Positions 17,206 to 47,500 of a DNA stretch of 64,000 nt are shown here, in pieces. Position numbers and translations under genes: made by a program. This DNA is from a virus: IMG/VR virus record IMGVR_UViG_3300036760_000069, positions 1 through 64,000 of that record; one strand, written 5' to 3'. Within the stretch, counting starts at the first letter, position 1. Each line of letters starts with the position of its first letter. The notes under the pieces were generated by a model. That model saw only the letters and a list, made by a program, of their open reading frames with translations, ran no database searches and had not been told where the DNA came from.

Positions 17206-17619
17206 TCAGACTCGCACCCCTTCTAGCCGGTATTTACACACCTCGATTGGCCGCTGATCCCGCTCGTCCCAACGGAAGGCCGCCACCTTCAAGTGTGGGT
17301 ACAGCGACACGATCACCATGAGCAACTTCGTCTCCATCATCAGCACCTGATCCGGCGGCGAGGGAATGGCCCGGCTTCGCGGGTGCGAGTGCCAGAGGGC
17401 CAACTCGAACCCGTCATACGCCGCCTTCTCAGCAAGGAAGTCCTTGGGGTCGATCTGGAACCCGTTCGCCGGATCCTCCGCCTCGTTCTCCAGCTCGCGC
17501 ACGGCAAAGAACACCCCGTCGAGGCCGGCCATGATGCCGCAGGCCTCCAACGGGGCACGCTTCTGGGCCGCCTCGATGATGGCGGTCTGTACCTGGGCTT
17601 TGATCTCGACCACGATCAC
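17206..17619 (-). CDS. JAB/Mov34/MPN metalloprotease
   Basis: EACG ... WHSHP ... PSPPD complete JAMM motif. Confidence 0.9.
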   Translation of the reverse strand: MIVVEIKAQVQTAIIEAAQKRAPLEACGIMAGLDGVFFAVRELENEAEDPANGFQIDPKDFLAEKAAYDGFELALWHSHPRSRAIPSPPDQVLMMETKLLMVIVSLYPHLKVAAFRWDERDQRPIEVCKYRLEGVRV

Positions 17620-18319: not shown

Positions 18320-19765
18320 TCACGATACTGAATAACCTTTGCTGCGTTGCTTCTCCCGATCCTTGCTCCGCGGCGTCGGCTTCTCCTGCGGCCGGAACAG
18401 GACGCGCCCCAGAACGTGCGTGATGGAATCGCCGACGTGCGAACTCGGCTGCTTCTTATCCGGCCCGTCCTTCAGCACTTCCCCCATGGCGTTCACCTTG
18501 TAGCTGTACCCGCCGGCAAAGGCTGCGTCGACTCGGTTGAACGGCTCGCCCTCCGTCACATGGGGCGAGACCTGCACCATCGGAATCCCGCCCGGCATCT
18601 GCGTGAAGATGAACTTCAGCGCGTTCTTCCGCGTCTGCCAGTCCGAGACACCAGGATGATACACCGTTTTCAGTAAGTCCTCAATAATTCTCGCCCCCGA
18701 GTAGTCGCTGTTACTCTGCTCGCGTGACTCCAGTGCCGGGTCGCCGCCGTCATACCACTTCTTGCACCGGGCATACCGGGGCTGGGCGAGGAGCGGCTGG
18801 AGCTTGGTGGTAATCATCTGGTGCATCCCGCCGCCAGGGAGCATGACGGAATCGAGAAAGTGCAGACGGCCCGACGGCGTGAACTGCGCCAGCACGCAGG
18901 TCGGATTCAGCCCGCCATCATACATCCGCAGGATCTGTTGCTCCGGCAATGGATCAATCCGGTGCTTGGCGAGGTGAAACTGTTGCTGGTACTCCTCGGT
19001 GATCCGCACCCCGTCATAGACGTCCGAAAACTCACCCTCATCGTACCGGGCGGCGAGATCGGGGCGGTTGCGGAAGGCCTCGACACGGGCGTCCCGGTCG
19101 GTCTGGGAGATGTGCGGGTTCTCGCCTTTGCGGATCCGGTACACCTCGGCGCCGGTCGCGGGCCGCTCGATCGCCCACTTGTACGTCCAGTGCTTGCGCT
19201 CGGCCGGGTTCATGGCGACCTGGAGACGCTTAGGCCCCGTGCCGCCGGCGGCCACCCGGCGCATCCCCATCAGGTAGACCTCCTCGCGCATCCCCTGGTT
19301 GCCGGTGTGAATGATCGGCGCGGGTTCTTCGAGGTGGATGATCTGGTACTCGGCCCCTTGGATGCGGTTCAGTGAATCTGGGGCGTCCATGCCGAACAGG
19401 TCGATGTCCATGCCGTCAGCGTAGAGCTTGTGGTAGTCGTCGTGGAACTCACAGATGTCCCCGAACGGGGACCGCTTGATCGAGTCCACGGTGATGCGCT
19501 TGAGGTTGATGTGCGTGTCCCGGATGAAGGCCCCGCGCATGTCGAACGGGTCGTCCTTCCGCCACTTGCCGGCAGGGTCGTCGTTCTGGTGGACCGGCAG
19601 GTACGGGCGTACCTCTTGGAGAAAGGCAAAGAAGGCGGCGATCGAGGCGAAGGTCTTGCCCTCGCGCTCCGGGCCAATGATCCACGGGTAGCGGGACTTC
19701 GACAGCACGAACTCAGCCTGGGTCAGCGTCAGCTCGAGGAGCAGGTCAACAGGGGTCACGCTCAC
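18320..19765 (-). CDS. terL: Terminase large subunit
   Basis: Walker A GPEREGKT, Walker B IHLEE, MNP coupling motif, RNase-H-like YDGG and HVGD; GTG start at 19765. Confidence 0.88.
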   Translation of the reverse strand: MSVTPVDLLLELTLTQAEFVLSKSRYPWIIGPEREGKTFASIAAFFAFLQEVRPYLPVHQNDDPAGKWRKDDPFDMRGAFIRDTHINLKRITVDSIKRSPFGDICEFHDDYHKLYADGMDIDLFGMDAPDSLNRIQGAEYQIIHLEEPAPIIHTGNQGMREEVYLMGMRRVAAGGTGPKRLQVAMNPAERKHWTYKWAIERPATGAEVYRIRKGENPHISQTDRDARVEAFRNRPDLAARYDEGEFSDVYDGVRITEEYQQQFHLAKHRIDPLPEQQILRMYDGGLNPTCVLAQFTPSGRLHFLDSVMLPGGGMHQMITTKLQPLLAQPRYARCKKWYDGGDPALESREQSNSDYSGARIIEDLLKTVYHPGVSDWQTRKNALKFIFTQMPGGIPMVQVSPHVTEGEPFNRVDAAFAGGYSYKVNAMGEVLKDGPDKKQPSSHVGDSITHVLGRVLFRPQEKPTPRSKDREKQRSKGYSVS

Positions 19766-20151
19766 AGTTCGAGGGGACTCCTTGGGCGGTTGTAAGCGTC
19801 CATGATCGCCTTGTCCATCATGCGCGTCATGGCCTTGGAGTCCCACGCCTTGGCGAAGACCTCCTCGAACATGGCGGCACAGGCATGGATCTCGGTCGCG
19901 GTGAGCGGCGGCAGGATCGGCGACTCGTAGCTGATGGAGCTGGCGGCAGGAGTCGAACCCGCGGCCTGAGCTTTACGAAAGCCCTGCTCTACTGTCTGAG
20001 CTACGCCAGCCCCCAGAAAGACGAACCCCAGCAGGCCCTTGAGAATGTTGCGCCGAGACAAGTTGGTAGCGGGGGCTGGACTTGAACCAGCGACCTGTTG
20101 CTTATGAGGCAACCGAGCTACCATCTGCTCCACCCCGCTACTTCGTTGCAT
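19762..20151 (-). CDS. 129-aa ORF spanning two tRNA genes, with Tat-like motif SRRNILK
   Basis: Start overlaps upstream stop (TGATG), stop overlaps terL start (GTGA), no in-frame stop through either tRNA. Confidence 0.45.
   Translation of the reverse strand: MQRSSGVEQMVARLPHKQQVAGSSPAPATNLSRRNILKGLLGFVFLGAGVAQTVEQGFRKAQAAGSTPAASSISYESPILPPLTATEIHACAAMFEEVFAKAWDSKAMTRMMDKAIMDAYNRPRSPLEL
19935..20010 (-). tRNA. tRNA-Thr(CGT)
   Basis: 76 nt; GCTGGCG/CGCCAGC acceptor stem, loop TTCGTAA, GTTCGAC T-loop, encoded CCA; D-loop lacks GG. Confidence 0.85.
20064..20139 (-). tRNA. tRNA with CAT anticodon (Met; initiator-like body)
   Basis: 76 nt AGCGGGGTGGAGCAGATGGTAGCTCG...CTCATAA...GGTTCAAGTCCAGCCCCCGCTACCA. 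Confidence 0.88.
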
Positions 20152-20378
20152 CAGTTTAGCACAAGCCGCCGGCCCACAAAGCCAGACAACCAGGCGCCGC
20201 GGCTCTTGGCGGCGACGTGGAAGATCGGCGGCCCGTGCGGCTTCTTGGCCCGGATGGCATAGGCCCGCTTTATCAGCTTGCTCTGCCGCTTCACCGGCAC
20301 CATGGTCCCATCCTCGCCTTCTTGAATGAAATGCACCTCGCCCTTCCAGGTCGTGTCGTCGTGGTAGCGTTTGCCCAT
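20151..20378 (-). CDS. Hypothetical protein
   Basis: Coupled ORF. Confidence 0.5.
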   Translation of the reverse strand: MGKRYHDDTTWKGEVHFIQEGEDGTMVPVKRQSKLIKRAYAIRAKKPHGPPIFHVAAKSRGAWLSGFVGRRLVLN

Positions 20379-20713: not shown

Positions 20714-20961
20714 CGTCGGCTCGGATCGTCCAGCATCGTCACGCGGGCCCCAAGGGCCTCGATCGCGCTCTCCAGCTCACGCACACGGGCCTCCAGCAGA
20801 ATCACCATCGGGATCTCCGGGGTCGAGGTGAACTTGCGAGCCTCGCCGTAGAACCGCAGGGCCGCCTCGTCCATCGGATGCACCACGGCAGCCCGCCAGC
20901 CGAACCAGGCGAAGATGGCGCGGAGGCGGTCAATCAGTGTCTGGGGGATTGGCTCCGCCAT
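20710..20961 (-). CDS. Hypothetical protein
   Basis: Coupled ORF. Confidence 0.5.
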   Translation of the reverse strand: MAEPIPQTLIDRLRAIFAWFGWRAAVVHPMDEAALRFYGEARKFTSTPEIPMVILLEARVRELESAIEALGARVTMLDDPSRR

Positions 20962-21530
20962 CAGCGTCCCGCCGGCGGCACAGGCCCTGCGGGCTTCTTT
21001 ACGATGAAGGTGAAGGGCTTCGTCCTGGGCCGCGCCGTCTCGCTCTTGAGATCCACGATGGTCTGGGGCTTCTTCGATTTGCCGCCCGTGCCGATGATGA
21101 ACGTGATGTTGATGGGCGGCCGTGGCGGCGCCGGCATCTCCATCTTCGCTGGGCGCGTGCCGTAGGCGTCCATCACCCGATCCACCGCCTTGAGCTGCAC
21201 ATCGAAGTCTGGCTTGGCGATCACCTCCAGCTTCTTGTCCTCACCATGGCCCGTCGTCACGGGGAAGAACTTCTCCGCGTCGAGGCACTCGTCTAACCGC
21301 TGCGCCGCCTTGTCCACGATGCCGGGGTTGCGCCGTTCCAGCGCGTCGGTCATCAGGGACTGGACGATGGGCCGCTGAAAGACCTGGTAGCCCTTCTTCT
21401 GGGCATAACTGGCGGACCAGCCGGCTGCCTTCACCGCCTGTCGCTGAGAGGCCCCCCCCATGACGGCGGCCACGGCCTTGCGCTCCTTTTTGTTGGCGGT
21501 TTTCTGCCGGGGTGCGCGTTTGACCGCCAT
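20961..21530 (-). CDS. terS: Terminase small subunit
   Basis: HTH-like SQRQAVKAAGWSASYA motif, AGGAGG RBS, upstream of terL. Confidence 0.7.
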   Translation of the reverse strand: MAVKRAPRQKTANKKERKAVAAVMGGASQRQAVKAAGWSASYAQKKGYQVFQRPIVQSLMTDALERRNPGIVDKAAQRLDECLDAEKFFPVTTGHGEDKKLEVIAKPDFDVQLKAVDRVMDAYGTRPAKMEMPAPPRPPINITFIIGTGGKSKKPQTIVDLKSETARPRTKPFTFIVKKPAGPVPPAGR

Positions 21531-21532
21531 GC

Positions 21533-21769
21533 CTACCTCCTGCCCACCTTCACGACGCCGCTGATCTTCAACAGCTCCTCCCGCGCACTGAACGGCAGGA
21601 ACTCCCGGACTACATCGCCCCAGACATCGCCACGCACCCACATGCGGCGGCAGAGATAGTCGGCCGCGTCCTGCCGAATGACCAACGCCACGTTCGGGCT
21701 CTGCGCGTCCTTGACGGCCTGCTCGACCACCGCACAGGCGAGGCGTAGCTCGGGCGACTCCACGACCAT
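21533..21769 (-). CDS. Hypothetical protein
   Basis: LACAVVEQAVKD motif common in phage pre-late genes. Confidence 0.55.
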   Translation of the reverse strand: MVVESPELRLACAVVEQAVKDAQSPNVALVIRQDAADYLCRRMWVRGDVWGDVVREFLPFSAREELLKISGVVKVGRR

Positions 21770-21772
21770 AGC

Positions 21773-21982
21773 CTACGCCCATCCCTTCTGCTTGGCGATC
21801 CAGAGCGAACAGACGAACTCGCCCGTCTTGTCCTTGCAGTCCACCTCGTTCTCGCCGTCGCAGATCTGGCTCCGCGGGATCCATTGCGGCGTGCCGTCGT
21901 CGACGTCGATCAGGATGGCCTTGCCGCTTTCAGCGGTGCAGGTCGCTTGGACACGATAGAGCGGTTCGTCGTCACGCATCAC
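21773..21982 (-). CDS. Small beta protein
   Basis: KAILI...WIPRSQI...WIAKQKG. Confidence 0.55.
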   Translation of the reverse strand: MMRDDEPLYRVQATCTAESGKAILIDVDDGTPQWIPRSQICDGENEVDCKDKTGEFVCSLWIAKQKGWA

Positions 21983-35546: not shown

Positions 35547-38500
35547 TTATGGAAAGACGCCCTCGCCAGCGGGGACGAGATCCGCCAGCAAGGGTTTAGC
35601 CGGCGTCAGCCAGTGGTGGGCTTTGAGTTTGGCGATGAAGGCGCGGCGGTCGCCCTCTGGGAGGACTTGGAGCATGGTGGTCGCGTAGTAATTCTCGGCC
35701 CGTTGCAGGATGCGCCGCTCCGCCGGCTCCAGTTGCTTGACCACGGCGTCCCGGTCATTCTTGGTCAGCCCCCAGAGGGGAGTCTTATCCCGGAGCGACT
35801 GGTGCATGGTCTTTGAGGTGCCGCCCAGCTCCTTGTACTCGGCGCGGTATTTCGCCTCGGCGGCCGTGTCTCCGTACTTGATCGAGAGCGCGATGTTCTG
35901 CAAGGCCTCGCCCTTGGGGGTGCGCCAGTAGAGCCCGCCGTCGTCCTTCCCAAGGCGTTGCTTGTACTTGGCCTCGATGTCCTGCCAGCTCTGGTAGGCC
36001 GCCTGGTCGGGGTTGATCTTTCGGATCCCGAGGAAGCCCGTCAGGTTGTCCGATCCGAGGTAGGGCTTGGTCGGCTTGCCGGCGAGGGCGCGTGCCTCCT
36101 GCCCAACGGTCGCCTGCTGGGCCAGATAGTCCCCACGGCTCTGCATCGGGCGCGGGTTAAAGACATCCGGGTAGGTGTTGATACGGCCCACCAGATCCAC
36201 CGTGTCCTTGACCAGCGGGGTGATCCCCTGCCAGACCTTGTTGATCGGGGCGTGCCACGTCTTCTGCCAGATCTCGCCCAGCGTCAGGCGCCCATGCAGG
36301 TAGTCCCCGACCAGCCCGGGGGCCTGGTCGAGGCCGAACCACGACAGGGCATCCCCCAGCGCACCCAGGCCGGTGAAGACCGGGATGCTCCCGTCCTCCC
36401 GTTTGCCACCCAGAATGACATGGATGCGGTTGGCGATCGTGGGGTCCGTGTCCTGCAATTCCCGCTCCTCGTCGTCGAAGACGAAGTTATTCCAGACCTG
36501 GAGCATCGTCCACAGGGCGGCGGCCCGGATCAGGAAGGCGGCGACCTTCTTACCAGCGACACCGGCCCCCCTCGCCCCTGCCCCGTAGTCGGCGTCCTCG
36601 AAGGCGTTCCGCAAGAGATGGGCGTACCGGCCCATATTGACCTCCTGCCAGCTCCAGAAGGGGTACCAGAACCGCCGCAGGGTCTGACCCGCCACAGAAA
36701 CCCGGTCGTAGGCGCCCAGCAGCTCGTTGGAGAGCTTAAACGCCCGATCCCGGATGTCTGGCAAGGCCATGACGGTCTCGCGCCTGGAGGCCCCCCAGTT
36801 CGCCGGGCGGCCCTCTGTGTTACCCTGCATCTGCTCCAGATAGTCGAGGTAGGCAGCGTACCGGAGCATGGCCTCGCGGTAGTCCGTCCCTAACCTCGCG
36901 GCTTTCCAGTATTTATTGAACGCTTCGACGGGCAGAGCCAGCGCGCCACCCTTGCCTTCGCGGTCGATCGTGGCCCGGAAAGCCTTGAGTTCGTTGAGAT
37001 CGCCCATCTCCTGCACCTGGAGGGTGGACCCGTAGCCCCCACGCTCTGCCCATTCCTTTGCCTCGCCGGTCAGGGGTTCATCCTTGAACATGACGGGCCA
37101 CATCTCTTTGATGGCCTGCTGGACCTTCTTGAAAGCCCCCGGGTTGCCGACGAACAGGGCATCCGAGTCGCCGGACAGGTTCCGCAGGTTGTACCCGATC
37201 ACCCGCCGCGGGGCGATCAGCATGACCTGCTTCCAGTGGGATAGGGCCGCCCGGTTGAGATCGACAAACCAGTTCGGTGCCGGCTGGGCCAGCTCGTCGA
37301 GCGTGACCGCCACCTCGTCCTTGACGACATACTGCTCGCGGGGCCCGCCCTGGGCCATCATCGTCCGGAGCATCTCCTTGGTCAGGCCCACCTCCTCCAG
37401 CGCGTGTTCGTGCAGGGCCTTGGCGAGCTGGGCGGGGATCGTGTCCGCCATGTAGAAGATGTTGCCCTCGCGGGGCTGCCAGAGCGTGTACCCGTCCGGG
37501 ACGAGATCCTGCCAGGTCTTGTACGCCTTCCCCAGCACGCCCTTGATGAACGCTTTGCGCTCGCCGATCGCCTTGAAGATCCCCAGCGCGTGCATCTGGC
37601 CGGGGGATTCCGGGTCGTTGGCGATGGCCTGAATCTGCTCCATCGTCAGCTTGTCGGCCGGTTGCAGATCGAGCGCGTCCCGGAGGCGGTGCTGGTGCAT
37701 CCCCAACCGCTGGCGGAAGTGCTTCATCTGGACGTCAATGAGGCTCACCCCGCCGGGGGCCGCCAGCTCGGCGTCGATCCGCTTTTGAAGGGTCTGCTGG
37801 TTGGCGGCCCGCGCCTCCCCCTTGAGCCGTTGCCGGATGTTATGGGCCTCGTCGACGCCCTTGATGACCTTGGCGAGCTGGGTGTCGTAGGCCATCTGGG
37901 CCATGACCTCGAACTCGGCCTGGATGTAGTTCGCGTTGATGTCGAAGGTGGACCCCTCACGCTTCTTGAGGAACCCCCGACCGGTCGGCGTCCGGAGCCG
38001 CTTGCCAGACCCAGCAATCAACCGTTGCTCACGGGCATAGTCCAGTACCTGATGCCGGAAGTAGTCCTCCTTGGTCAGCTTCTTGCTCACATCGAACCCG
38101 ATGGCGTCCATGGCCTTCTTGTAGTCGGTCGTCAGGCCCTTCCAGAGTTCCTTTCGAGCGGCCCAGGCGGCTCGAATAGCGGGATCCTTCTGGACGCGAT
38201 CATCAATCCGTTCCAGATCGTGCGTGACCGAGTCCGGCGTGTACTCGAACGGGAGTTTGTTCCCCTTCGCCGCTTCGTGCGAGAGGTCGGTCAGCAACGC
38301 CTTCCATTCGAGGTCGTCGTATTGCATTGGCGAGAGGGGCTTGACGATCCGCGCCAGTTCGCGCTCGATCCGGTCTGCCTGGATGCCCTTCTGCTTCGAG
38401 AGCTTGAGGAGGTCGTTGCGGAGCCGGCTGAACTCGGCGGTATCCGGCAGATGCTCGAACTCGCGGGAGGTCAGGCGCCAGACCTGCTTGAGATGCTCTT

Positions 38501-41500
38501 TGGCCCACTCCTTCCAAGAGATCGGTTGCAGACCCTTCTTGGCCTTGCGAACGCGAGCATCAATAGTCGGATTGGCCGATCTGAACCAGCCAGGCTTTGG
38601 CCCCTCGTTCACCTCCTTCCCGAGCGGCACGCCGCCACGCTCATTGAAGCGGCGCATCTTGGAGATACCCTCGTTCGGCACCCAGGCGAGGATGGCCTTG
38701 ACGCCCTTGTTGATCGCAGCGTACTGCCGGCGGCGGCCGTCGAGAGCTTCGCCGCCTTCGCCGTCAATGATGATCGGGTACTTCCCGGTCGGCGTCTCGG
38801 TGGTCAGCTCGAGTGTCTTAGGGTTGACCGCCTTCAGCGTCCACTTGTCGCCGTACCCGCTGATGCCGTGGAGGTCGTTATAGTCGAGCTTGCCGAAGGA
38901 GTCCTTCAGGGGGAGGGTGTCGAGGTAGTCCTCGAACTCGGCGCGGGTGAGCGTGTCGCCTTGGACAGGCTGGCCTCTCTTGGCGCGACGATCAGGTAGT
39001 GCGGCGCGGGATGATACCGCTTGGGCCGGACGCTGACGGCGGCCTGGTAGAGGGATTTGGGATTGTGCCCCGCCGCCTTCGCCTCCTTCAGGATGTGCCG
39101 CACCGAGTCCGCGTCCACGAAATCGTTCATGGCCGGTGCTAATCTTCTCAAAAACGTCATGTGATTCTTCACCCTGAAAGGGTTTGAGTGTGTCGACGTC
39201 AGCGGCAATTTGTGCAAGGAGAGTTTTGGCACCATTGGGGCCTCCCATGTCGCCCAGCATCACCTCAAGGGCGGCGGCGCTTTCCTTGATCGTGCGGGCT
39301 TGATTGTAACTGTTGATGGCGGCGAACGCTTCATTGTGCGGGCGCACGGACTGATGACTGATTTCATGCACCGCCGTCGAGATCACCATGGCGGCAAACT
39401 CTTTCGCCAGATTCTCCGGCGGAATCCGTCCGTTCAGCACATGCCCATTGACATCCTGGTAGATGTCGTAGGGGTTGATGAGAATGTAGTTGCTCTGGTC
39501 GCCCTTGAAGATCGAACTCCCGCCGATGTTCACGCCGAGGTACTTGCCGATTCCGATCCCCTGGAAGACGACCGATCCGTACTGATCTCCGTAGGGGATC
39601 AGCGCCTTCTGGAGTGGCGCAAAGGCGCGGGCCATCATCAGCGCGAGTTGCTTGACATGCGGTTGGTCCGCCATCTCCTTCAGGATCTCCGGCGGCACGG
39701 TCTGCTCGGTGTCCATGAACTGGAAGTCCGTGCCGGGGACATCCGGGGCCTCCTCGAACGCCTTGCGGAACGTCTCCCGCTCCACATCCAGCGCGTCGGT
39801 GACGAGGTCTTGGATCAGGTACTTGCGGATGACGTCCTTTACATCGCCGCGCAACTTCTCCCGGTTCGTCGTGAAGGGGTAGCCCGTCTGCCCCGGCGTG
39901 CGGCGCGACCGGATGTTGGCGAGGATGGTATGCGGGAGCTTGAGCTTGTGCCCTTTGCCGAAGCTGACGTTGATCGTGAACTGGTAGAGGCCGTTGTTCA
40001 GGATCTGCACCTTGCCTGTCTCCATCTCGGCGGTGCCTTCCGCTGCGGAGAAGTCCACCTCGCCGCCCTGGAACTCCAGCGTGCGTGTCCGGGCCACGCC
40101 CATCGCCTTCCAGTTCTTCTCGGGGTTGATCTCCAAGCCCCCGATCGAGGCCGAGAGCTTGAGCGGCATCTGGTGAAAGGCCGTGACGTTCTCCAGCCAC
40201 TTGCGAATCGCCGGCGTATCGAACTCCATCTTGTCCGGGTACTTGAGCCGGACACGGGTGCCTGGGGTCGCGTCGGGATCGGCCGCCTTGATCGTGGCGG
40301 TCAGGCCCTTCTCCTGGTTCAGCCAGTCGGCCCCGGACCCGCTTAGATGCGTCTCAACCATGCCACGGGCCGGATCGTAGGCGACCGTCTTGATGTCGAT
40401 GTTGTCGGCCCCGGCGAAGATGACCACCTTGGCGACCCCGAACATGCCGGCGGCGTCTTCAGTCTTCTTGCTCCCGCCAAAGTCCACCAGCTCCTTGAAC
40501 GCCACATCAGGGAGCATCCCGGTTCCCGTGTCGTCAATCGTGATCTTGTGATCGTCCGGGAAGACCTCGATCCGCACCATGGCCCCCGCTTTGTCGGTCA
40601 GCCCGCGGGTGCCGTCCGTGGCGTTCTGCACCAGCTCCTTGACGATGACCTTGGAGGGATGCTCGGAGTACAGGCCCTCGCCCATGGCCTTGATGCGGTT
40701 CGGGTCGATGCCGGCGGCGGCCCCGTGCCCACCCTCCTCTTTGACGACCTTGATATAGGAAACATCAGCACGCCCATATTGTGTATCTAACACGACCATC
40801 GCTGGGAACGACTTCGCCCCCAGTAACTTCAGCGCGTCGAAGCGGTGGCCGCCTTCCAACACATACGGGCCTGCCTTACTCCCATCCTCGACGACGATCA
40901 GCGGTTCGATTTCACCAGACTCCTTGATCGTGTTCGCAAGAGCTTCGACCTTGTGCTTCTCTGTCCGGGAATAGAATGAAGGCTTTCCATCGTCTTGAAA
41001 TGCGGAGATCGGCACCTCGCGTACACCGTCAAGTATTTCGTACTTCGTCAGGCTGGCCTTAATGGAGGACTGGTTGGACGCCTCGCCCACCACCCGGCGC
41101 CCATCAACCACATTACCGGCCCGCTTGAACTTTGTCTTGAACGCCTTCATGTGGCTGGTGATCTCGCCCTGCCCCATCTCGGAATCCACGATCTCGGCGA
41201 CGGGGTGGTTCGCCACGATCTTTTCAAAGGCCGAGGCCCCCTTCTCGCCCGTCGGGATGAAGATGCGCGTCTTGAACTGGATGATCTCGCGGAACGCCCC
41301 GGCGGCCTCCAGCTCCTTCCACGCCCGCTCGACCCCGTTGCCCACGATCTCGATGCGCGTCTCGCCGGCGACGGTCTTGCGCTCGAACCGCCACCCGTTG
41401 ACCAGCGCGATCTTGCTCCGCTTCTTGAGGATGGTGTCCATGGCCTGCGCGGGCGTCAGCGTCGGCAAGTCCACCGAGGCCCCCAGCCGGCGGAGAACAG

Positions 41501-44500
41501 CCGACACATCGCCCTCCCGGACCACCCGCCCCAGATACCGCTTGCCGGTGTCGTCCTGGACGCGCATGACTCGGACATGGTCCTGCGGGAGCCTGTCCCA
41601 TATCGGGAGCAAGGTGCCGGAAATCAGATGCAGGGGTTCCTCGCGGTAGGGTGGATGCGTGTCAATCGTCTTCTTCCAGAGGGCTTTGCCGGCGTCTGGA
41701 TTGATCGCCGCGTAGTGCTTGCTCAGGCCGTCCTCGTCCACATAGTAGTACGTCTCGGCGACGGGGCTGATGAGGCGGAAGTGTTTGTTGACGCCTCCCG
41801 TTTTCGGGTCCGTGCGCGTTCCGGTATAGACCGAGGCGAAGACCTTCTCGGTCTTGTTGCTCTGGACGTACCCCTGAAAGCCCTCCTTCTTCTCGACCTC
41901 CTTGGTCTGGACGAAGTTCACATCATGCTTGGTGTCCATCGAGACCATCGACGTTGTGGCGCCGCTGATCGGATCGCGGTAGACCTGTTGTTCCTTGATC
42001 GTCTTCACGCTGCGAGCCTTGTACGTTTCGAGACCCACATCGAGTTGTCCGAGCGAGGCCGCGTGGTCGATCGCCTGCTCCATGCGCTCGCTGAAAGCAT
42101 CGAACACGGCGTTTTGATCGTGGATCTCCAAGGCCAGAATCCGATTAAGAAACTGCGGGACTTTCGGGATCTTGTCCTCGTTGATGGACCCATCATCGGC
42201 GACAAGGCCCGTCAGCCCCATCTTGCCCTCGATCATCTCCTTGAAGTCCACGGTCGGGACTTCCCCGCGATGGGCGTCCAACACCAGTGCCCGCACCGCG
42301 CCTTGCGCGTATTTGTTTTCAAGGTTGTCTTTGGCGTTGATGAGGCCTGAGCTGCCCGTCTTGCGCTCGCCCTTGGTCATGGCCCCAAGCTGATCCAACC
42401 GGCGGCCGATGGTCGAGATAAACCGCTTGTGCCCTTTCAGGTTCGTCATCACCAGCACATAATGCGGGGCATTGGCCTCGTTCGTGCGGTGTGAACGGCC
42501 CAGCCCTTGAATGAACTTTTCCGCCCGCCAGCCAGGTTGCACGCCATAGTGCCAGCGTTGCCGCTGGTTCTTGATACGCCGATCCGAATGGAAGCTGCGC
42601 CCAGTGCCGCCGGCGTCTGAAAAGACAAGGATCGACTTCTTATCAGCAAGGTATTCGTCTACCTCATGGGCGGCGAGCGAGGGTGAACGAGACTGGATCA
42701 CCGTCTTCTCGCGCCCCAGATTGTCTTTGAGGCGCACCACGCGGCGGCTCCGACCCGTGACTTCCGCCACGGCGTCCGGCCCAAAAGTGTTGATGATGAA
42801 CTCCAGCGGGCCTTCGGGTACCTTCAGCGACCCGACCGAGAGAAGCATGTCCTGCTTGAGCTGGATGGCGTCCTGGTTCTGCACGGGGTTGCCATCATGG
42901 TCCAGCACGGGGCGAGACCGGATGTTCCCTTGCTCGTCCTGGTACTGCTCGTACTGTTGCGTCGGAAAGGACTTCTCCAGAAACTGCATCAGGGCATCGC
43001 GTGGCGTGAGATCGAGATTTTCCAGATCGCCGTCTTCTTGCTCGGCGTTTTGGATCTGCCGCTCCATGCCCGCCTCGTTGGTGTTGACGAGTTGAGCGAT
43101 AATGGCCTTGCCATCCTTGATCTTCGCTTCCATATCGGCGATGACGGTGGGCATCTGCATGGCCGTCAGCACCTGATTGAAGAACCGGAGTTCCGTGCCC
43201 CAGAAATTGGAGAGCAAGGTGGACTTGGCGCCCGCGTTCTTGGCCTTCCCGCCCTCGGTGACGCCCGTGAGTTCGAGGGCCTGATTGATGTTTGCCAATA
43301 CCACCTGCCATGCCCGCGCCAGTCCGTTGTAGATGTCTTCTTGTTCTGGCGTCAACACATGCTCAAGAGTGCTATATGTGACCTCTGAGAAGTCGAGCGA
43401 GCGAGCGATATAGACGCCCATGGCCTTCATGTCACGGGCGACCACTTCCATCGCACCCAAACCGCCTTCCGTGATCTTCGCCGAGAAATCATTCTGGTCA
43501 GGGAAGGCCGTACCGGGCCCCCACAGACCGAGCCGTTCAGCATACCCCAGCGTGTCTACCGAGTTCGCGCCGGTCGCCGAGGCATACACAATGCGAGCCT
43601 TCGGCACCTGCTTGCGGAGGTCAAGGGCCGCAAGAGCCTGGATGGAGGCTTGCTGGTGGATGCCACGCGCCCCCATCGACTGCGTGGTCTTTTGCATGTT
43701 ATGGGCTTCGTCGAACACGATCACGCCATCGAAGTCTTTGCCGAGCCACGCTAGGATCTGATTGACCCGCGATTGTTTGGGCTGGTTCGTTTTCTTGTCT
43801 GTAATGGGAATGACCTTGCCGGTCTTATCCGTCATTAAGTTGGAGCGGATCGTGGCATAGGTGGTGAACATAATGCCCTTGGGTTGGTCGATCGGTTCGC
43901 CGAGTTTGGTCTTGCCGAGTTCAAAAACTTGGCCCTTGTCGCCGCCAATATCCACCCAGTCGCGCTTGGCGTCGGCTATGAGCCTAGAAGACTCCGAGAC
44001 CCAGATGGCTTTCTCGCGCCCGTTGCGGAAGTTATCCAGAATGACGGCGGAGATCTGCCGGCCCTTCCCGACCCCCGTGCCATCGCCCAAGAAGAAGCCC
44101 TTGCGCGTCCCGTCTGACAGAAATAACTCATGGGCCTGTCCTGCGTACACGGGCGTCTCGAGCTGGGCCAGCGAGAGGGCGCCGGAATCAATCAGATCCT
44201 GCGGCAGGTTGGGCGTGTAGGTCGGATCGGGCGGGAGCGTGTCCGCCATGGCCGCCGACTCTACCAGTTTGCCAGGGTGCGGTTTGGCACCAGGAATCCG
44301 CACCTTGGGTGGTTGGTACTCGTCGTAGACGGCGTCGGTGAGTTCTTTGGTCGTGCTGGGGAACTTGGATTCAGGTTCGCTGGAAGCGACGACCGTTATC
44401 CCGGACTGAACGGGTATATGGGCGGGTACGTTCCCTTCATCCGCGGGTCGTCCCGCAGGCGCAGGTCGAGGGCCTCCAGTACCTTCACCGCCGCCCGCCT

Positions 44501-47500
44501 TGGGCTCATGGCCTTGGATAGGTCGCTCTCCTCCAGCAACGGGGAGTCCGGGCTCTCTGGGCTGTTGAGGAACCACTCCAGCGCCCTCTTTCCGTCCGGG
44601 TACGCGAGGAGGCCGTCCAGTTTCTGTCGCAGGATGTCGCTGTCCCCCCCCGGCGGTGTGGTCAACCGGCCGTGGTCGAGTCCCCACATCGCCAGTTGGA
44701 ACAGGTACGGCAGATCCGGGTCCGGTTTGGCCCCCGCCACCTTCAGCCACCGCTTGGCCTCCACGTTGAGCGGGTGGTCGTTGTTCGTCTGGTCGGGTCG
44801 CTTGTCCTTCAACGCTGGGGCGGTCATCGCGCACCTCCTTGAGGAGATTGAGGGCTTCATAGGGGTTCTCGGCCTTCCCTGTTACCACCTCTACTGAAGG
44901 AGAGGGGGCCACTTTATCGAAAATCAAGATGCGGTTGTCAAAATCAGTGCCGTATTTCTTGTACCCCTTGCCGGACATGACCACGCTGGCACGAAGCTGG
45001 TACTTCTTGGCGAGGGCGTCGATGGCGCGGGAGACCCCCTCGGACTGCCCCATGAACCCCTCGCCGATCAGGGCGACGAGTCGCCCATTCGGGGCCAGGA
45101 GCTTCAGGGCCTGGTCGATGTGTTTGCTGATGGCGTTGGTACTCTTGCGCTCGCCCGTGATCCGGCCGGCCGTCGAGGAAAACGGCGGGTTCATCACGAT
45201 CACCGTGGGCGTGACTTTGAGGATGTTGGCAATCTGTTCGGCGTTCTCCGTCGTCACCTTGTTGAAGACGATGGTATTGAGGAGTCCGGCCCGCCGCGGC
45301 GAAAGTTCGTTGACATCCACATCGGCCCCGAAGTTCTTGGCGAAGATCGCCAGCCCACCCAAGCCGGCACTTGGCTCCAGCATGACATCCTTGGGGGTGA
45401 TGTGCGCCGCCCAGTTCATCACGAACGCCAGATCCGGGGGGGTCGAGAACTGTTGGAACTCGACCATCTCCGGCGTGCGTCTCGTCCCCTGCGACGGGAT
45501 CTTGTCCATGATCTGCTCACGCAGGTAGTTGAGCATCTCCCGCGCTTTTATGAGGCTATAGGTGGTGGGTCTGTAGACGCCATCAGGGCCCAGCATCTCG
45601 CCGATGAAGCGGTTGATCCCCAGCTCGAGGGCATCATTCAGATCCTTGACGGTGTAGGTGCCGTCCGCCTGTGTGCCCCCAAAGTCCTCATTGGCTCGCG
45701 TGACCAGTTGATCCATGCTGAACGACAGTACACCAGGCGCCGTGTCCTCTTTCAGGCGTTCCTCGACAAAGTAGGCGATGTTCATACTCGCGCCGACGAT
45801 CTTCTGCTCCGTGGTCGCTGGAGCTTCAACCGCCGGGATCGTGGGCTCGTCGGGTAAGACCGCGCCGCGCCCGCCCTTGGTGAGCAGGTCCGCCTTCTCC
45901 TGATCGGTCATGGCGGGCTTCGGAGCGGGCAGGCTGGGGGTCGTCGGGCTGGGCGTCTTCGGTTCGCTGGCCTTGACCTGTGAATCGTAGAAGGCATCCA
46001 ACGCAGACTTCTCGCTCCCGATCGGACGATCAGGCGTCCCCGGCATGAAGCCCCATTTTGAGCCATCTGGGCGGTAGATGTTCCATTCCTTGCCGGTGCG
46101 CCGTGCAGTCCACCCTGCGGCGAGAAATTCATCCTTGGTCATGTCGGCAGGGTTGGCCGTTGGGACGGTCTTTGTCTCTGGCACCAGCCCAGGCGTCTGA
46201 GCTTCGGCCTTCTGCGGATACTCGTCAGGGTGGTGCGCGAGCTTGTACTTCGCGTCCTCGATCGCCCGCTCCCATCGTGCCCAGTCGTCCGGGTAGCCGT
46301 GCGTTTCAAAGTCGTCGAGGCCGGCTTGCGCGACTTCGATGATTCGGTATGGATCGCCAGCATTCTCGGCCTTTGTCAGGGCGCGCTTGTGCTTGCGGTA
46401 GAGATCCTGCCGGAAGTCGCCCGTGGGGGCCTTGTCCTCGTCCTTCCAGCCGCCGGGAGGGGGCTTGTCGGCGACGGTCGGACGCTCAGGAGAAGGCAGG
46501 CCAGGAGCGGCATGGTGTTCGGCCTTGGGTGCTTCCGGTTTTGGCTCCTCTGGTGTTTTCTTGGCGACAGGTCGATAGACTTGGATCCCCTCATCCCCTC
46601 GTTGAATAGCTTCGTAGAGACGGTTATTGCCATCAATCACCTCGCCCGCATGATCCAGCACAATCGGGCCATTCGTCATTGACCCTCGCGGAACAAACTC
46701 GGCGCCATCCCAGAGCATCTCGTTACCTTTACGAAGTGATTCGATCGGCACTCTTGCCTGTTCCCACTGTGAATCGGTGAGATGGGCGTCCTCGTTCTTG
46801 TTTGTTTTACGTCCCAGCTCCGTGTACCCGATAGCGTTCTGAGCGGACTCTGGGAGTTCCTTAAAAGCCAGCGTCTTTATCGATTTGATTTCCTGTTTGG
46901 GGATTGGGAATCCTGGTGCGGCAGGGCGTTCGGCTTTGACTTCTGGTTTTGGCTCCTCTTTTGAGGGCGCAGAACCGGAACCTGCCGGCATCGTCAGCGC
47001 ATCCTGCACCTGCTTCTTCTGCTCATCGCTCAGGCCGTTGTACGGGCGCCCGAACAAACCACGTGCTGCCTCGTTCGGCGTGGCATACTTCTTGGGCGAG
47101 AGGGCCTCATTCGCCGTCTGCCCCTTCCCGACCGTGAAGTTCGCCTCGGCGGCGGCGGCGGCCTCCTCCATCGACGGGTAGGTGCCAAGCGTGTCCTTAC
47201 CGCGAATGTCCCACGCCTCAAACTGCCCGTCGTCGCGCTCAATGACCATGGCCTTCGGCTTCTCAGGATTGCCGCCGGCCCAGATGTAGGTCGATTCGCC
47301 AGGTACGGCCCCATGTTCCCACCCCGCCGGCAAGCCTGTCGTTGGTTCATTCGCCGGAGCCACACCTTGCTCAGTTTGGGGGGCTGGCAGGCCAGGAACA
47401 GGGGTAGGTTGAATGTCGGAGACCCTATCCGCACGCTTCTTCAGGAACGGTTCGCGTTGAACTGGAGCCAATTCTGGCGGAATGGCGGCTACTTCGGCCT

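Follow-up and report, generated by a model that had tools for sequence, protein, structure and literature searches.

Candidate translation through a tRNA-Thr gene upstream of the large terminase gene of a phage

The stretch of DNA analysed here, called the window throughout, is the first 64 kb (64,000 nucleotides, nt) of the virus record IMGVR_UViG_3300036760_000069, a phage genome of 87,117 bp that is rated 100% complete in IMG/VR. Just before terL, the gene of the large terminase subunit, a stop-free frame of 129 codons on the minus strand runs through the genes of a tRNA-Met and a tRNA-Thr and through the spacer between them. Both the spacer and the 170 nt that follow tRNA-Thr resemble coding sequence in this one frame. 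We tentatively read the locus as a small protein gene with tRNA-Thr inside its reading frame, translated from the spacer through the tRNA, a reading that appears quite possible if still short of probable. Translation is favoured mainly because a twin-arginine motif and a hydrophobic run, both encoded by the spacer, persist in a diverged copy that continues into a different downstream protein.

Coding signature on both sides of tRNA-Thr

The elements that the original prediction described are all present, as confirmed by ARAGORN, Rfam and the coordinates: two tRNAs of 76 nt, a 53-nt spacer, a stop-free frame of 129 codons and an overlap at each of its ends. The ATG of the frame (20151-20149) overlaps the TGA of the upstream gene orf75 as TGATG, and its own TGA (19764-19762) overlaps the GTG of terL (19765) as GTGA. 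The openness of the frame alone carries no weight, because 36% of the six-frame codon positions in the window equally sit in stop-free runs of at least 129 codons. The tRNA phase that reads ..GVAQ..VE..GS.P.. is generally free of stops, and about 40 catalogue 'proteins' returned by an exhaustive protein search represent this phase. As controls we used 125 distinct tRNAs from the loci gathered in the analysis; 56 of their 375 tRNA-frame combinations (15%) stay free of stops across the tRNA, the 17 codons before it and the 20 after it.

The argument for coding rests on codon usage, which we scored with a log-odds model trained on 25 long genes of the phage and compared with two nulls, Markov sequences and stop-free windows read in a wrong frame. 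The spacer, which in frame reads NLSRRNILKGLLGFVFLG, scores +8.6 over its 17 codons (P 0.003-0.010). For the 20 codons that separate tRNA-Thr from the annotated ATG of a 36-amino-acid (aa) gene, here called the pre-ATG tail, the score is +9.9 (P 0.002-0.008); both values lie at the coding median. The whole 170-nt tail scores +31.6 (P <0.001), against a coding mean of 26.8 and a wrong-frame 99th percentile of 12.7. Guanine-plus-cytosine (GC) content by codon position follows the same pattern, with 0.59/0.33/0.83 in the spacer, 0.54/0.46/0.89 in the tail and 0.63/0.41/0.85 in terL. Spacer and tail thus both carry the codon usage of the genome in the open frame, and the two share a phase only when the 76 nt of tRNA-Thr are read through. 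The tRNA segments themselves are uninformative in frame (tRNA-Met -2.1, tRNA-Thr -2.8).

Canonical start codons occur in frame at 20151, 20133, 20124, 20112, 20061 and 19872, and as ATG at 19830, 19821, 19818 and 19803 inside the 36-aa gene. Between 20061 and 19872 there is no ATG, GTG or TTG in the frame. In this phase tRNA-Thr reads AGVAQTVEQGFRKAQAAGSTPAASS, with no stop and no canonical start; its single near-cognate codon is the ATC at 19935, whose first base is the terminal A of the tRNA, and the near-cognate codons of the pre-ATG tail are ATC and CTG only. If the pre-ATG tail is translated, the ribosomes must therefore come from upstream of tRNA-Thr. The TTG at 20061, directly before the twin-arginine motif, is the top-scoring start for the frame, and the ATG at 20124, inside tRNA-Met, has a GGAG 3 nt upstream.

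Among the 124 other tRNAs of the control set, none behaves in this way: tRNA-Thr alone combines an open frame with P <=0.03 on both flanks, and the next best value is 0.21. Set against other tRNA loci this one is a genuine outlier, and dual coding stays a candidate reading of its sequence. Of the dual-coding frame that had been proposed, the part that stands is the spacer and the 170 nt after tRNA-Thr, which are coding-like in the very frame named; the first 30 codons, from the ATG at 20151 through tRNA-Met, are probably not part of a protein, and the part of the frame that crosses tRNA-Met is unsupported.

Two other ways of reading the region were rejected. An open reading frame (ORF) on the plus strand at 19802-19930, which shares third positions with the frame, scores -8.2. 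Excision of the tRNA followed by ligation, with removal of either 76 or 73 nt, would put the tail in a non-coding frame (scores of -25 and -75).

A twin-arginine-like peptide and its diverged copy

The spacer peptide resembles the n-region of a signal peptide with a twin arginine, followed by a hydrophobic region (h-region). Its SRRNILK agrees with the motif S/T-R-R-x-F-L-K, and the h-region, GLLGFVFLGAGVA, has 13 uncharged residues with a mean Kyte-Doolittle value of 2.11, within the range of about 12-20 uncharged residues of such signals. When the genome is read in all six frames (174,230 codons), the pattern [ST]RR..[LIVMF]K followed by 13 uncharged residues has one match, namely this spacer. 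Possible signal-peptidase sites, AGVA and AQA, lie inside the tRNA-encoded stretch. Using a pattern validated on the window itself, we found RRxxLKG within 1-9 nt of a tRNA 3' end at no other tRNA in 2.9 million viral contigs of IMG/VR. The putative twin-arginine (Tat) signal that had been noted in the spacer agrees with such signals in its motif and hydrophobic run, both retained in a second copy, but misses the cut-off of the curated model (8.7 against 22.7 bits). Four ordinary bacterial Tat signals, taken from the genome scan described below, score 16.1-28.2 bits on Pfam TAT_signal, two of them below the cut-off.

The second copy, P0123, is a 152-aa ORF from a 1,126-nt Logan contig, found by an exhaustive HMMER search (E 8e-12). 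It consists of the translation of a tRNA with a CAT anticodon, then ISRRGLLKGLLGLLALPLLP, then the translation of a second tRNA, after which it continues into a different protein, the start of which is similar to beta-helix proteins of the DUF1565/Pel9A type. Its first residue corresponds to the ATG at 20124 within tRNA-Met. P0123 retains SRR..LKGLLG (as SRRGLLKGLLG) and differs from the spacer of the window by an in-frame length difference of four codons; its uncharged region has 16 residues, and most of the substitutions preserve the hydrophobic character of the h-region (I>L, F>L, V>L and F>A), alongside one G>P. On Pfam TAT_signal it scores 14.4 bits, against the cut-off of 22.7. Read back from the codons, the anticodon stem of its second tRNA appears to differ from that in the window at 4 of 5 pairs, all of which could still form; this suggests that the copies diverged deeply while the spacer was under constraint. 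Since P0123 retains the twin-arginine-like peptide despite its divergence, the peptide is not a one-off.

The original prediction offered, as one possibility, that the tRNAs were inserted into an existing Tat-peptide gene. This fits poorly: both copies share tRNA, signal and tRNA yet differ downstream, and the shared unit is therefore a cassette, not an interrupted gene. One may go further and suppose a portable phage cassette of tRNA, signal peptide and tRNA, in which a functional tRNA gene, nested in frame between the signal peptide and any protein that follows, would cause each transcript to be either cut or translated into an exported protein. In the window this would be a dual-coding switch of RNA and protein on one strand, immediately before terL and translationally coupled to it. 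This wider proposal, drawn from the sequences of the two copies, is rather doubtful.

Searches for further relatives of the non-tRNA parts gave a match to the spacer, in P0123, and none to the tail. Pfam and PHROGs returned nothing for the 129-aa frame or for the tail. A word-indexed search of proteins had no match for the 129-aa frame, not even P0123, and for the tail just one, the 36-aa call of the record itself; negatives of this index need care, because P0123 was missed although it shares several 5-residue words. A DNA search and tblastn against cultured phages and plasmids gave tRNA matches only. Relatives of terL in IMG/VR and metagenomes (44-52% identity) have no cassette and no homologue of tail or spacer; unrelated small ORFs precede terL there, and tRNAs adjoin it only sporadically. 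A strict pattern for the cassette had no match in viral and genome collections, and a relaxed version of the motif, sought ahead of the 5' end of a tRNA, had 9 matches in viral contigs, all random. In genomes the relaxed pattern had at least 120 matches; none of the 80 loci screened is a tRNA-flanked cassette, and the nine that passed the filter for an uncharged stretch are ordinary Tat proteins or noise. Of 15 contigs with the same tRNA-Thr anticodon arm, none has such a spacer.

P0148 (noted together with L188 4944-5291) is another catalogue ORF, which fuses the translation of a near-identical tRNA-Thr in frame to a nuclease-like protein; its nearest viral homologue opens at a separate ATG some 20 residues ahead of the part that they have in common. 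The residues right after the tRNA (x-P/S-Y) are alike in P0148, the window and P0123, which suggests a conserved 3' trailer.

The proposed gene and its rivals

In the most economical model, ribosomes would initiate at the spacer or a short way before it. The TTG at 20061 is the favoured start and gives M-SRRNILK... and 99 codons; the ATG at 20124, inside tRNA-Met, is an alternative. The N-terminus of the product would be a twin-arginine-type signal peptide whose h-region ends in the first codons of the tRNA. A linker of 25 residues rich in Ala, Gly, Ser, Thr and Pro, encoded by tRNA-Thr, would follow, and the product would end in a tail of 57 residues, probably helical and translationally coupled to terL through the GTGA overlap. 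According to this model tRNA-Met and tRNA-Thr would also be released from the operon transcript, and each transcript would meet one of two mutually exclusive ends. Processing by RNase P and at the 3' end would liberate tRNA-Thr and thereby sever the message, or else translation across the tRNA would prevent it from folding. Such an opposition of RNase P and ribosome is suggested by what is generally known of tRNA maturation. Translation itself, its start site, export of the product, the competition between processing and translation and any effect on terL are what we infer from the sequence; that the competition gates the expression of terL, as had been suggested, is purely inferential.

Several observations weigh against this reading. 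No Shine-Dalgarno sequence precedes the TTG at 20061, the ATG at 20151 or the ATG at 19872 (one is also lacking in 75 of the 134 called ORFs of the phage, or ~56%), and the source annotation calls the 36-aa ORF only. P0123 has Ile at the position of the TTG, which is thus not conserved as a canonical start. The window copy scores 7.7-8.7 bits on PF10518 / TIGR01409, against a cut-off of 22.7, and 15.3 bits on TIGR02811, against 48.45. Among ~15 billion proteins the tail has no homologue, bar the record's own 36-aa call, and a single-sequence AlphaFold model has low confidence (predicted local distance difference test, pLDDT, of 56), with a predicted helix at residues 55-73 that spans the annotated Met-64. 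One would also expect RNase P to cleave a message of this kind. The second copy has limits of its own. The open frame of P0123 is an ascertainment effect, because the sequence was found by searching a catalogue of proteins; it is read as protein only, and conservation at the protein level is not separable in it from conservation at the nucleotide level. The ~61% amino-acid identity of the spacers would also fit ~80% neutral nucleotide identity if the divergence were shallower, and only two sequences are known, one of them read as DNA.

A first alternative holds that only the tail is a gene, either the 36-aa ORF from the ATG at 19872 or a slightly longer one from an ATC or CTG, and that the remaining frame is open by chance. 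The signal-like spacer would then reflect coincidence together with the shared ancestry of a tRNA cassette that spread recently. The commonness of open frames agrees with this, both in the six frames (36% of positions) and across tRNAs (15% of combinations), as do catalogues full of spurious ORFs in the same tRNA frame. The source record calls just the 36-aa gene, the upstream starts are without a Shine-Dalgarno sequence and the curated Tat cut-offs are unmet; moreover, very many windows were scanned, so rare coincidences are expected to surface. However, this account needs several independent events of low probability to have occurred together, among them a coding-like pre-ATG tail without a start codon (P about 0.002-0.02) and a 1-in-3 match of phase. 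The motif is unique in the genome, stands beside no other tRNA of IMG/VR and is retained in P0123 despite diverged tRNAs, and no control tRNA behaves likewise. We consider this explanation unlikely, if still one to be reckoned with.

A second alternative accounts for the coding-like flanks without ribosomes that cross the tRNA. The locus would be a relic, either of a signal-peptide gene broken by the arrival of the tRNA or of a fragment captured with the cassette; its flanks would now be untranslated, and only the tRNAs and perhaps the 36-aa ORF would be functional. The missing Shine-Dalgarno sequence, the orphan tail and the weak score of the window copy on the Tat models are all consistent with such decay. 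A dead fragment should, however, continue to decay, yet the motif and the hydrophobic run persist in P0123 across an in-frame indel, even though its tRNAs have diverged, in part by changes of the stem that look compensatory. The downstream proteins of the two copies differ, so they are not one interrupted gene, and the GTGA coupling of tail and terL is intact. A relic thus seems improbable.

The spacer may instead have been conserved as a nucleic-acid element, such as a determinant of processing, a weak terminator or attenuator, or a protein-binding site, with the peptide being incidental. The spacer is indeed conserved along with the tRNAs in P0123, and one terminator-like hairpin with a T-run occurs at 20038-20023; this hairpin is weak and within chance (1 found, 1.4 expected). 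Of 200 shuffles, 194 fold better than the spacer RNA (z +1.65), and Rfam holds no family that matches the spacer. The length difference of 12 nt and the replacement of hydrophobic residues by hydrophobic ones suit a peptide better than a site, and the coding-like pre-ATG tail would be left unexplained. We regard this explanation as very improbable.

For chance alone to explain the locus, a number of rare and independent events would have to coincide, which looks unlikely. The choice lies instead between current translation, a decaying relic of a signal-peptide gene and some constraint on the spacer of an unspecified kind.

Genome context and known systems

The genome has a GC content of ~62% and nearly all of its genes are on the minus strand. 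Along that strand the small terminase-like gene is followed by tightly overlapping ORFs of 83, 111 and 75 aa, the tRNA pair, 173 nt more and then terL (Table 1). No promoter was found at the locus.

Table 1. Features at the tRNA-terL locus, with positions in the window.
Feature	Position	Strand	Remarks
Small terminase-like gene	20961..21530	-	189 aa from ATG 21530; phrog_641 E 3.6e-5, phrog_51 E 1e-3
orf75 (75 aa)	20151..20378	-	GC by codon position 0.61/0.45/0.83; GGAGG Shine-Dalgarno 9 nt before ATG
129-codon open frame and stop	19762..20151	-	No internal stop
tRNA-Met	20064..20139	-	Anticodon CAT (Met, or Ile2 if lysidine-modified); ARAGORN; Rfam 67.3 bits, E 1.6e-13; CCA encoded
In-frame TTG directly before SRR	20059..20061	-	2 nt past the CCA of tRNA-Met; candidate start for the model of 99 codons
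Spacer	20011..20063	-	53 nt
tRNA-Thr	19935..20010	-	Anticodon CGT; wholly within the frame; ARAGORN; Rfam 61.3 bits; CCA encoded
Pre-ATG tail	19873..19934	-	20 codons between tRNA-Thr and the annotated ATG; coding-like, no canonical start
36-aa gene called in the source record	19762..19872	-	P0121, 100% identical; codon score +21.8; holds the AAGGAG preceding terL
terL, large terminase subunit	18320..19765	-	481 aa; P0001 and 130 homologues, several with PF04466/PF03237

The two tRNAs are the sole tRNAs of the genome, and both score well above the RF00005 gathering score of 29. The most frequent Thr codon of the phage is ACG. The tRNA with the CAT anticodon is not an initiator, because its A1:U72 is paired and its anticodon stem has no run of three G:C pairs in the Rfam alignment; it may be an elongator tRNA-Met or a lysidine-dependent tRNA-Ile2, and the phage seldom uses ATA (1.4 per 1000 codons). 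A listing of sequencing runs gave one DNA run with this sequence, probably the source sample, and no RNA run; the contigs of the DNA run hold no variants. Logan contigs of this run split within tRNA-Met (20064-20093), with a 30-nt overlap and depths of 14.6 and 10.1, as is typical of a repeated tRNA k-mer, and the spacer, tRNA-Thr, tail and terL share one contig.

The product of terL has the invariant G31, G36 and K37 of a Walker A motif and belongs with the terminases, with a weak match to phrog_3717 (E 0.0077); its nearest relatives are P0002 (75% identity) and P0003 (64%). Several terL relatives (P0007, P0010, P0011, P0018 and P0119, and those at L099 2870-5311, L089 2828-6349 and L090 2741-5350) are 770-1,170 aa long. 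Homing-endonuclease or intein domains (PF05204, PF05203) occur in P0007, P0010 and P0119, and at the three loci the extra sequence is placed directly after the Walker A motif; the terL of the window has no such insert. Upstream, the ATG at 21530 is the likely start of the small terminase, with AGGAGG 5 nt before it, and the 307-aa ORF listed at 20961-21884 (minus strand) is probably two genes, 21769-21533 and 21530-20961. For orf75 there was no family match in Pfam or PHROGs.

Two further observations concern other parts of the window. A single ORF of 4,615 aa at 35547-49394 (minus strand) contains a Strawberry-notch-type helicase (AAA_34 E 1e-111, Helicase_C_4 E 9e-81) and looks, from its sequence, like a giant 'polyvalent' phage protein; sub-threshold matches to ParB_N (23.5 bits against a cut-off of 26.3) and DnaJ (weak, 20.3 against 27.8) were also seen. 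A weak match to Hammerhead_II at 17326-17382 (minus strand; 23.9 bits against a gathering score of 37, E 0.18) is probably due to chance.

If the reading as a translated gene is true, it would be, to our knowledge, the first phage case in which a protein frame encloses a structured RNA gene of the same strand. It would represent a new kind of gene overlap and offer a direct system for the competition between RNase P processing and translation, and it would mean that a 'benign' reading phase of a tRNA can be used as a protein linker. If the locus is a relic instead, a mobile tRNA cassette carrying a signal-peptide fragment would be documented. A gene of this design would be dropped from every catalogue, because annotation pipelines mask tRNAs first and forbid overlap of protein and tRNA genes.

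In phages, tRNA genes are co-transcribed with protein genes and released by RNase P, as in the tRNA cluster of T4. The tRNAs of the window similarly lie in a same-strand protein operon without a promoter of their own and need to be cut from a longer transcript. Unlike T4-type clusters, where small ORFs lie between or beside the tRNAs, the coding signature in the window spans a tRNA in one phase, with no start after it. Overlapping (overprinted) genes of viruses are the subject of a review (PMC8227390). As in such genes, one stretch of nucleotides would serve two products under a double constraint. Known overprinting pairs two proteins in different frames, whereas the window would nest a structured RNA gene, on the same strand, within a protein frame.

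With Tat signals (PF10518 / TIGR01409) the peptide shares S-R-R-x-(I/L)-L-K, 13-16 uncharged residues rich in Gly, Ala and Leu, and sites like A-x-A; it differs from them in its scores, which lie below the cut-off in both copies, and in that part of the h-region in the window and the entire c-region would be encoded by a tRNA. The frame is also similar to spurious catalogue ORFs that cross tRNAs (P0122, P0130 and P0139), which have the same tRNA phase and are open by the nature of the tRNA sequence. The spacers of those ORFs share nothing with each other, whereas the spacer of the window is conserved, motif-bearing and coding-like, and its downstream flank is coding-like as well. Finally, in transfer-messenger RNA (tmRNA) the tRNA-like and the coding parts are separate domains. 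As with tmRNA and with tRNA-like structures in mRNAs, a single RNA would here have both a tRNA-type and a messenger role, but in the window, unlike in tmRNA, the tRNA itself would be translated.

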